From sequence record PP925828.1: a DNA stretch of 64,000 nucleotides; one strand, written 5' to 3'. Every line of letters begins with the position of its first letter. The first letter of the stretch is position 1. The notes beneath the pieces are model-generated. The model saw only the letters and a list, made by a program, of their open reading frames with translations, was not told where the DNA came from and ran no database searches. Positions 29,247 to 30,080 of the stretch are shown one piece after another. The position numbers and the translations under genes were made by a program. The stretch comes from Escherichia phage SpoonbillGilly.

Positions 29247-29675
29247 ATGTTCAATAATATTTTCATGAAAGAGGTAAATCCTATGCTTCTCAACTTCTGG
29301 CGCTCTCTCCCTAATGGTATGTATAATGAAACCATCAATCTGCTCAAGATTTGGTGTGAGAATAACGATATCTTCTTATCCTTTAAAGGCCCGCTAGAGG
29401 AAGCTCCGTGTATTGGAGTTAGCGTGGATTTAGGGGAGGGAGTAGAAGAGATTGTAGACTGGAAAGAACTCGATGAAATGGGTCTGGTTTTTGCCTTGAA
29501 TCATAAGCTGTTTATGCCTGCAAATCACCGTCTTATTGTAAATTATCGCACTGGTGAAGCTCCTGCTTTCCAGGTAAATGAACGTGAGGGCTGGTCATAT
29601 TCGCCCGAGGAAGTAAATGAGGGGATTCAGAAACTTCGTCGTTTCGGGTATATGATCCCAGGTTTAACTGCTTAA
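29247..29675 (+). CDS. hypothetical protein, paralog A (142 aa)
   Basis: Shares ...DW.EL.EMGL.FALN...G..PGL pattern with next gene. Confidence 0.5.
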   Translation: MFNNIFMKEVNPMLLNFWRSLPNGMYNETINLLKIWCENNDIFLSFKGPLEEAPCIGVSVDLGEGVEEIVDWKELDEMGLVFALNHKLFMPANHRLIVNYRTGEAPAFQVNEREGWSYSPEEVNEGIQKLRRFGYMIPGLTA

Positions 29676-29684
29676 GGAGGCAGA

Positions 29685-30080
29685 ATGGAACAAGTATTTT
29701 GGCGTCAGATAGATCCTAGTTTGGTAGAGCGTGCTGAGGGGCTCCTTGCACGTTGGTTGGGGGTTGACAAGGTTAGTGTAACATTTCCGTTTACTTCTGT
29801 AACAGACCCTAGTGTAGGTGTCTTTGTGGACGAAGATGAAGATGATGGTTGGGAAGCTGACTGGAATGAATTGTCCAGCATGGGCTTGATTGTTGCCCTC
29901 AACTTCTCTATATTCCATCCACGTGGCTTAGCCATTACACGTGACCCCGAAACTGGTGAATCCCCTTATCTTTTGCAAGTAGAAGATGATATTTGGGAGT
30001 ACACCGAAGATATTCTCGAAGAAGCTAAAGGTCAATTAAATCGCATTGGGATCTATGTCCCTGGCCTAAATGATGATTGA
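29685..30080 (+). CDS. hypothetical protein, paralog B (131 aa)
   Basis: AAGGAGG RBS; paralogous to 29247-29675. Confidence 0.5.
   Translation: MEQVFWRQIDPSLVERAEGLLARWLGVDKVSVTFPFTSVTDPSVGVFVDEDEDDGWEADWNELSSMGLIVALNFSIFHPRGLAITRDPETGESPYLLQVEDDIWEYTEDILEEAKGQLNRIGIYVPGLNDD

Follow-up and report, generated by a model that had tools for sequence, protein, structure and literature searches.

A tandem pair of two-module DUF7415 paralogues in the early region of Escherichia phage SpoonbillGilly

Two short open reading frames (ORFs), here called ORF1 and ORF2, stand side by side on the plus strand of a 64,000-nucleotide stretch of DNA from Escherichia phage SpoonbillGilly (PP925828.1); this whole stretch is referred to as the window. 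A preliminary description made from the sequence alone had singled them out as tandem paralogous genes of 142 and 131 codons, perhaps with a host-interaction or anti-defence role. Both ORFs are found where it placed them and on the same strand, and the pair was correctly spotted as paralogues, but they are paralogues of an already catalogued protein family, DUF7415, and not a new system. Overlooked were this prior cataloguing, as DUF7415 and as PHROG 2502, and the two-module build of each protein. What is new here is the module anatomy, an asymmetric loss of the family motif, a dating of the duplication, and a pattern of gene context and fusions. Databases make no mention of the two-module build, of the motif's loss from all modules but one, or of the pattern seen in contexts and fusions.

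How closely are the two proteins related? BLASTP aligns residues 17-140 of ORF1 with residues 5-128 of ORF2 without a gap, over 124 residues at 31% identity (68.6 bits, E 1e-20). When ORF2 was shuffled 200 times, the best score had a mean of 13.0 bits (standard deviation 4.6) and a maximum of 26.9 bits, against 69.7 bits for the real sequence under the same settings. Every core motif that had been proposed as common to both ORFs is present: DWKELDEMGLVFALN of ORF1 corresponds to DWNELSSMGLIVALN of ORF2, GEAP to GESP and GYMIPGL to GIYVPGL, and an acidic linker precedes the DW motif in both proteins (GEGVEEIV in ORF1, DEDEDDGWEA in ORF2). The AlphaFold2 model of ORF1 superposes on the BFVD model of A0A3P4A7J9, a protein of the ORF2 cluster, with template modelling (TM) scores of 0.86 and 0.93 and a root-mean-square deviation of 1.5 Å. 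Together with the shared Pfam family and PHROG and the purifying selection described below, these results establish ORF1 and ORF2 as real genes and real paralogues. The idea of tandem duplication and divergence is further backed by the finding of the same ordered pair, ORF1-type followed by ORF2-type, in Markadamsvirinae and in Sugarlandvirus.

Pfam assigns both proteins to DUF7415 (PF24187), ORF1 with 125.5 bits and ORF2 with 98.2 bits where the gathering threshold is 27 bits, and each contains two matched stretches. The 134-position profile of PHROG 2502 is matched at positions 2-134 by ORF1 (E 7.2e-60) and at positions 4-134 by ORF2 (E 2.3e-58). Sequences identical to ORF1 and ORF2 have been deposited from many Markadamsvirinae phages as 'DUF7415 domain-containing protein'. 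In phage T5 the orthologues are T5.106 (73% identity to ORF1) and T5.107 (69% to ORF2), alike in order and spacing; they come after a HAD gene, and no further gene separates them from an annotated terminator and the promoter that precedes the origin-binding gene T5.108. ORF1 and ORF2 are the Epseptimavirus orthologues of this T5 pair; both are acidic and soluble, and on the T5-type map their genes fall in the early region. They are members of DUF7415 and PHROG 2502 like T5.106 and T5.107 themselves, with no difference in kind.

Several GenBank records carry other names: ORF2 orthologues are called 'tail tube protein', and ORF1 orthologues 'exonuclease' or 'phage exonuclease (ACLAME 70)'. It is hardly credible that these labels are right: the genes lie in an early operon, from nrdD/Sir2 to the origin-binding gene and distant from the structural genes, and Pfam, PHROGs and NCBIfam give no tail-tube or nuclease family for either of them, nor is there a corresponding fold match. 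The Rv2179c-like DEDD nuclease domain is absent from both, the only Pfam match being DUF7415. The stray 'exonuclease' label can probably be traced to the fact that some DUF7415 relatives are fused to an Rv2179c-like DEDD exoribonuclease domain.

Profile scans with NCBIfam and PADLOC gave zero matches for both proteins. A sequence search of all PDB chains with both proteins and two family profiles produced nothing usable, no solved structure, those of anti-defence proteins included, matched ORF1 or ORF2 in sequence or fold, and Foldseek against the BFVD viral structure library returned family members only. A leucine-rich-repeat match in ORF1 (E 2.9e-5) was rejected as a chance motif. Residues 15-42 (..SLPNGMYNETINLL..) weakly match many leucine-rich-repeat units, and the match was discarded because no single stretch is significant, ORF2 has no such match and AlphaFold places a helix there. 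In the literature, no mention of DUF7415 was found, nor any of T5.106 and T5.107 in main texts, the two genes turning up only in CRISPRi-ART supplements; likewise, nothing was found on DUF550, DUF551 or DUF3850, and a Sir2-HerA paper and the HIDEN-SEQ preprint had no bearing on the pair.

The two matched stretches in each protein reflect two modules. Scanned singly against Pfam DUF7415, the half-proteins score 73.3 bits (ORF1 N-terminal half), 56.6 bits (ORF1 C-terminal half), 44.4 bits (ORF2 N-terminal half) and 57.9 bits (ORF2 C-terminal half). When 1.84 billion representative proteins were searched exhaustively with a profile, 163 relatives passed E <= 1e-3, and about 20 of these have two modules; the remainder cover the C-terminal half only and many are small (roughly 60-130 aa). 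A second profile search brought 272 further relatives, of which the 120 listed all have a single module and a length of about 62-88 aa. Stand-alone proteins of 65-85 aa are by far the commonest form of DUF7415, a domain carried by at least about 900 sequenced phage genomes and by many prophages, and without structural or functional precedent. Some very long matches (700-4500 aa; P0055, P0079, P0099, P0112 and others) consist of many short stretches at about profile positions 88-120. These look like repeat artefacts and not family members; P0055, which was inspected, is made up of near-identical tandem repeats.

The single-module proteins share the motif W-N..S..GL...IN.E.LHPLGLA..R....G.S......DG.W.Y, which among 80 sequences has invariant Gly, Leu, Ile, Asn, Glu, His, Ala and Ser positions. 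Of interest is how unevenly this motif is distributed over the SpoonbillGilly pair. The C-module of ORF2 keeps 17 of 21 family-conserved positions (W-N-S-GL-N-HP-GLA-R-G-S-D-W-Y), and the C-module of ORF1 only eight, with His, Ser, Arg and GLA gone. A profile built from single-module proteins only gives 72 bits for ORF2 and 27 bits for ORF1, in both cases at the C-module, and detects neither N-module. The ORF2 C-module is the sole canonical one of the four, and both N-modules are more diverged than the ORF1 C-module. Did the N- and C-modules arise from one ancestral unit? In hhalign, the N-half profile and the single-module profile align in register over 47 columns, but weakly (E 1.6e-3, probability 16%), and BLAST between N- and C-halves gave nothing significant. 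Homology of the two modules is plausible and is asserted by Pfam, but our own tests did not confirm it.

The predicted structures add to this picture. The ORF1 model (predicted local distance difference test, pLDDT, 87; predicted TM score, pTM, 0.82) has residues 1-10 disordered. Its N-terminal half contains a 13-residue helix (residues 25-37) followed by strands that form a beta-hairpin, and in its C-terminal half a short helix leads to a second one of 13 residues (80-92), which is followed by two strands and a last helix at 120-132. The model of a 69-aa single-module protein (P0232; pLDDT 83) consists of a short helix, a 13-residue helix and a hairpin, in the order seen in the C-terminal half of ORF1. 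Predicted secondary structure gives the same order of elements in both halves, a 13-residue helix and then two strands. Each protein consists of two modules, each a helix plus a beta-hairpin, that are predicted to pack against one another.

Table 1. Features of the ORF1-ORF2 locus (positions in the window)
Feature	Position	Strand	Basis or remark
ORF1 (T5.106 orthologue, 142 aa, pI 4.74; ORF1-type two-module DUF7415 protein)	29247..29675	+	
ORF2 (T5.107 orthologue, 131 aa, pI 4.05; ORF2-type two-module DUF7415 protein)	29685..30080	+	
ORF1 N-module, aa 15-65	29289..29441	+	Pfam DUF7415, half alone
ORF1 C-module, aa 70-121	29454..29609	+	Degenerate DUF7415 module
ORF2 N-module, aa 3-51	29691..29837	+	Pfam DUF7415, half alone
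ORF2 C-module, aa 59-109	29859..30011	+	Canonical DUF7415 module
ORF2 ribosome-binding site AAGGAGG, overlapping ORF1 TAA stop	29674..29680	+	Sequence reading; equivalent annotated in phage Sw2
Intrinsic terminator-like hairpin and T-run, operon end directly 3' of ORF2	30104..30124	+	
HAD-family phosphatase gene (T5.105 orthologue), directly 5' of ORF1	28705..29244	+	Pfam HAD_SAK_2
Sir2-like gene (T5.102 orthologue)	27574..28449	+	Pfam SIR2
Anaerobic ribonucleotide reductase NrdD gene, ~2.4 kb upstream of ORF1	24944..26818	+	
Terminator-like hairpin after NrdD gene	26825-26849		

The features of the locus are given in Table 1. A nucleotide search with a 1.9-kb segment around the gene pair found 524 matching records, the top ones of Epseptimavirus type, and the segment is 98-98.5% identical to that of many Salmonella, Escherichia and Klebsiella T5-like phages. 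In the annotation of the equivalent region of phage Sw2, the anaerobic ribonucleotide reductase (NrdD) is followed by a terminator, three small ORFs, a Sir2-like protein and two more small ORFs. After these come three hypothetical proteins, of which the second and third correspond to ORF1 and ORF2, and then, beyond a gap, the replication-origin-binding protein. Terminators are annotated in T5 and in Serratia phage Slocum at the position matching the hairpin that follows ORF2. The spacing between ORF1 and ORF2 is 9 nt, and the two share a reading frame, with starts 438 nt apart and no more than the TAA stop and three codons between the coding parts. The T5 orthologues are likewise in one frame (locus L004, starts 1098 and 1536), and the Sugarlandvirus pair overlaps and is out of frame (locus L003, starts 3588 and 3986). 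The shared frame is probably a coincidence; read-through would yield a four-module protein.

The true start of the HAD phosphatase gene is probably at 28738. Its product matches HAD_SAK_2 ('Swiss Army Knife RNA repair' HAD) with 71 bits, and is labelled 'Sir2 (NAD-dependent deacetylase)' by RefSeq records and PHROG 18062 and 'RNA repair protein' elsewhere. To judge from these matches, the 'Sir2' label looks like an annotation error propagated from T5.105. The Sir2-like protein itself scores 78 bits with Pfam SIR2, far under the NCBIfam equivalog cut-offs.

When did the duplication, evidently an ancient one, take place? Klebsiella Sugarlandvirus has two adjacent two-module genes, the ORF1-type first, with a C-module still more decayed than that of ORF1, and a canonical ORF2-type second. 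In bacteriophage Eos, adjacent ORFs of 137 and 131 aa occupy the equivalent position, and membership of the family was confirmed for the downstream one only. A two-module gene (136 aa) was also confirmed in Pectobacterium phage My1, where an ORF of 90 aa comes before it. Serratia phage Slocum has one two-module gene at this same position, directly after the Sir2-like gene, and no second DUF7415 copy within its 9.4-kb locus; the Slocum protein is intermediate, with nearly equal similarity to ORF1 (73 bits) and to ORF2 (64 bits), and retains the canonical motif (57 bits). The simplest reading is that the ancestor was a single canonical two-module gene, which would have been duplicated within Demerecviridae before Markadamsvirinae and Sugarlandvirus split. 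On the same simplest reading, the upstream copy then lost the motif and the downstream copy kept it.

Both copies are under purifying selection. When they are compared with T5, dN/dS comes to about 0.07 in ORF1 and about 0.21 in ORF2, with dS near saturation. The products of the flanking HAD and origin-binding genes share 90-94% of their amino acids with T5, ORF1 and ORF2 only 73% and 69%. ORF1 and ORF2 are thus real genes under constraint that evolve faster than their neighbours.

Gene context is most uniform in Demerecviridae. In those examined, the DUF7415 gene or genes always come last in an operon that contains a Sir2-like gene, with a terminator directly after; the operon is usually 3' of nrdD, sometimes includes the HAD phosphatase gene, and always lies before the gene for the origin-binding protein. 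The Sir2-like gene is upstream in all of them, including Slocum, whose operon has neither nrdD nor HAD. Outside this family, T4-like Jiaodavirus of Klebsiella (loci L013 and L014, positions 3977-4210) has a 77-aa single-module gene between nrdD and nrdG that overlaps both; one record calls it a 'MazG-like family protein'. In Slopekvirus and RB43, a DUF7415 gene ends an operon with the NudE nudix hydrolase gene (nudE), and in Aeromonas prophages a DUF3850/ASCH gene lies two genes 3' of the DUF7415 gene. Neighbours within three positions were counted on 78 viral contigs with single-module genes, mostly P2-like and found with a narrow domain alignment: the replication protein gpA occurs at 27 loci, D12-class adenine methyltransferases at 19, C5 methyltransferases at 6, N6/N4 methyltransferases at 5 and PAPS reductase at 5.

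Fusions of DUF7415 with other domains are also found. The partners are thymidylate kinase, a MazZ-like dATP/dGTP pyrophosphohydrolase (PF04447), DUF3850/ASCH, an Rv2179c-like DEDD 3'-5' exoribonuclease and a helix-turn-helix (HTH) domain. Proteins made of the exoribonuclease and a C-terminal DUF7415 are about 296-340 aa long. Pfam confirmed this fusion on the L053 representative; the seven candidate loci, on IMG/VR P2-like contigs (L053, L070, L072, L082-L084 and L095), were grouped by length and sequence. Context and fusions point to nucleotide- and NAD-handling enzymes rather than to anti-defence.

What, then, might these proteins do? The reading put forward here, tentatively and as a possibility rather than a probability, is that DUF7415 is a non-catalytic module that binds a nucleotide-type ligand or a conserved nucleotide-handling partner and serves phage nucleotide or NAD metabolism, ORF2 being functional and ORF1 its degenerate partner. 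A binding module is suggested because the unit is small and apparently paired, a dense set of its aromatic and polar residues is invariant in phages of very different hosts, the proteins are acidic, enzymes for nucleotides, NAD/ADP-ribose-type substrates or nucleic-acid ends recur as neighbours and fusion partners, and a single site is retained in the fused pseudo-dimer. Direct binding to nucleic acid is argued against by the acidity of the proteins (family median pI 4.78). DUF7415 modules would act in pairs, single-module proteins as homodimers and T5-type proteins as pseudo-dimers made by fusion, in which one site is intact. A site for a nucleotide-type ligand, or for a conserved nucleotide-handling partner protein, might be built from the conserved Trp/Tyr, Asn, His, Arg, Ser and Asp, and the proteins could be non-catalytic accessory or regulatory subunits in nucleotide- or NAD-linked metabolism. 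The likeliest partner in T5-like phages would be the Sir2-like enzyme encoded next to the pair, or else the NrdD pathway, and ORF1 may be a degenerate partner or a scaffold paralogue of ORF2.

There are parallels for such a role. The ATP-cone of ribonucleotide reductases and NrdR are small regulatory, ligand-binding modules of nucleotide enzymes, stand-alone or fused. DUF7415 resembles them in being short, in occurring alone or fused to enzymes of nucleotide metabolism, and in lying beside nrdD or nrdG in some phages.

Several findings weigh against the reading put forward here. The nrdD and Sir2 linkages in Demerecviridae represent one inherited arrangement and not independent observations. 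Contexts elsewhere are heterogeneous: Pseudomonas P2-like prophages place the gene between the head-completion gene L and the tail gene X, and one T4-like contig has it near rIIA/rIIB. The fusions are equally compatible with a generic dimerisation or targeting domain. The homology of N- and C-modules rests mainly on the Pfam model, with N-modules missed by the single-module profile and a marginal profile-profile score. Finally, the fitness call for T5.107 described next is barely off the threshold, and T5.106 was not scored as such a gene.

The T5 genes have been included in a published knock-down screen, CRISPRi-ART, whose supplements annotate T5.106 and T5.107 as phrog_2502, of unknown function (PMC11879866). 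T5.107 is one of 17 T5 genes scored 'Fit', and among only six genes of unknown function so scored in the pooled T5 screen; T5.106 is 'Not Fit' (PMC11879866). With the threshold at FC > -3 and P < 0.05, the values for T5.107 are -2.90 and P = 0.0215 (PMC11879866), and the call is borderline because -2.90 sits almost on the threshold. For T5 the screen is of rather low sensitivity, since the gene for the origin-binding protein is 'Not Fit' in the same table (PMC11879866). The phage stocks used were grown on E. coli BW25113 (PMC11879866). The marginal fitness signal of T5.107 hints at a role beyond counter-defence.

The host-interaction or anti-defence role suggested in the preliminary description is here without direct support, there being no match to a PADLOC profile, a solved structure or a viral structure outside the family. 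In its fuller form this explanation holds that the proteins neutralise a host immune or housekeeping protein, or sequester a nucleotide immune signal as a sponge would; it is rated as somewhat less likely than the metabolic reading. Small size, acidity and a place in the early region speak for it, but neither a PADLOC defence profile, nor a solved anti-defence structure in the PDB, nor an annotated viral structure was matched. Evolution faster than that of the neighbouring genes (69-73% versus 90-94% identity to T5) fits this explanation, and a duplication with asymmetric divergence fits an arms race; the selection, however, is purifying and not diversifying (dN/dS 0.07-0.21). The spread of the family is patchy and accessory-like, over unrelated phages and P2-like prophages and including moron-like positions, yet the motif is near-invariant across very different hosts, something seldom expected of inhibitors whose targets are variable immune proteins. 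Nucleotide capture would be compatible with the conserved aromatic and polar residues, and fusion to nucleotide-degrading enzymes (DEDD exoribonuclease, MazZ-like) would suit the removal of a signal; against this stands the marginal fitness effect of T5.107 in a screen with stocks from E. coli BW25113. The phage nucleotide 'sponges' Tad1, Tad2 and Acb2 are anti-defence proteins for comparison. DUF7415 proteins are like them in their small size, their accessory role in phages, a probable oligomeric state and the conservation of aromatic and polar residues, but differ in having no sequence or structural match to any solved protein.

Might the module simply hold other proteins together? As a general-purpose adaptor or oligomerisation module that binds no ligand itself, it would tether enzymes to one another or to the replication machinery, and stand-alone copies would be scaffold subunits. 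The small size and predicted pairing of the module, its presence at the N- or C-terminus of several unrelated enzymes, and the location of the genes at the junction of the nucleotide-metabolism and replication modules all fit. However, across hosts and phage families about 10 polar positions, occupied by Asn, Ser, Glu, His, Arg and Asp, are invariant or close to it, which exceeds the usual need of a dimer interface, and an adaptor is not readily reconciled with stand-alone proteins of 65-85 aa being by far the commonest form. This explanation is judged quite improbable.

A bolder version of ligand binding, more doubtful again, is that DUF7415 represents a nucleotide-binding fold that is widespread in phages and has so far gone unrecognised. 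It would be a paired module for the capture of a nucleotide-derived molecule, and the duplicated T5 pair would form a hetero-complex with one active site, which works with the Sir2-like enzyme. The ligand would then be an NAD- or ADP-ribose-derived molecule, a cyclic or linear oligonucleotide signal, or a regulator of the dNTP pool. Stand-alone copies might serve as sponges or sensors, and fused copies could hand the ligand to degrading enzymes such as the DEDD exoribonuclease or the MazZ-like pyrophosphatase.

DUF7415 genes are kept in every T5-like phage examined, including many phages of Salmonella, E. coli and Klebsiella, and such T5-like phages are the kind isolated for biocontrol and therapy. 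If the link with Sir2-like proteins, NrdD and nucleotide enzymes is functional, the family would constitute a new accessory component of phage nucleotide or NAD metabolism, or of its use in conflict with host immunity.

Other observations concern the surrounding DNA. ORF2 is separated from the gene for the origin-binding protein by a 490-bp non-coding stretch (30081-30573), in which no Rfam family and no notable repeats were found; an extended -10-like sequence, TGATATAAT, is present at 30192-30200, where T5 has an annotated promoter. The origin-binding ORF is 970 aa long with the mechanical start at 30574, which is probably too far upstream because T5.108 has 928 aa. Elsewhere in the window, 17 tRNA genes are clustered at 653-11225 on the minus strand (Rfam matches at the gathering threshold), as is typical for T5-like phages.
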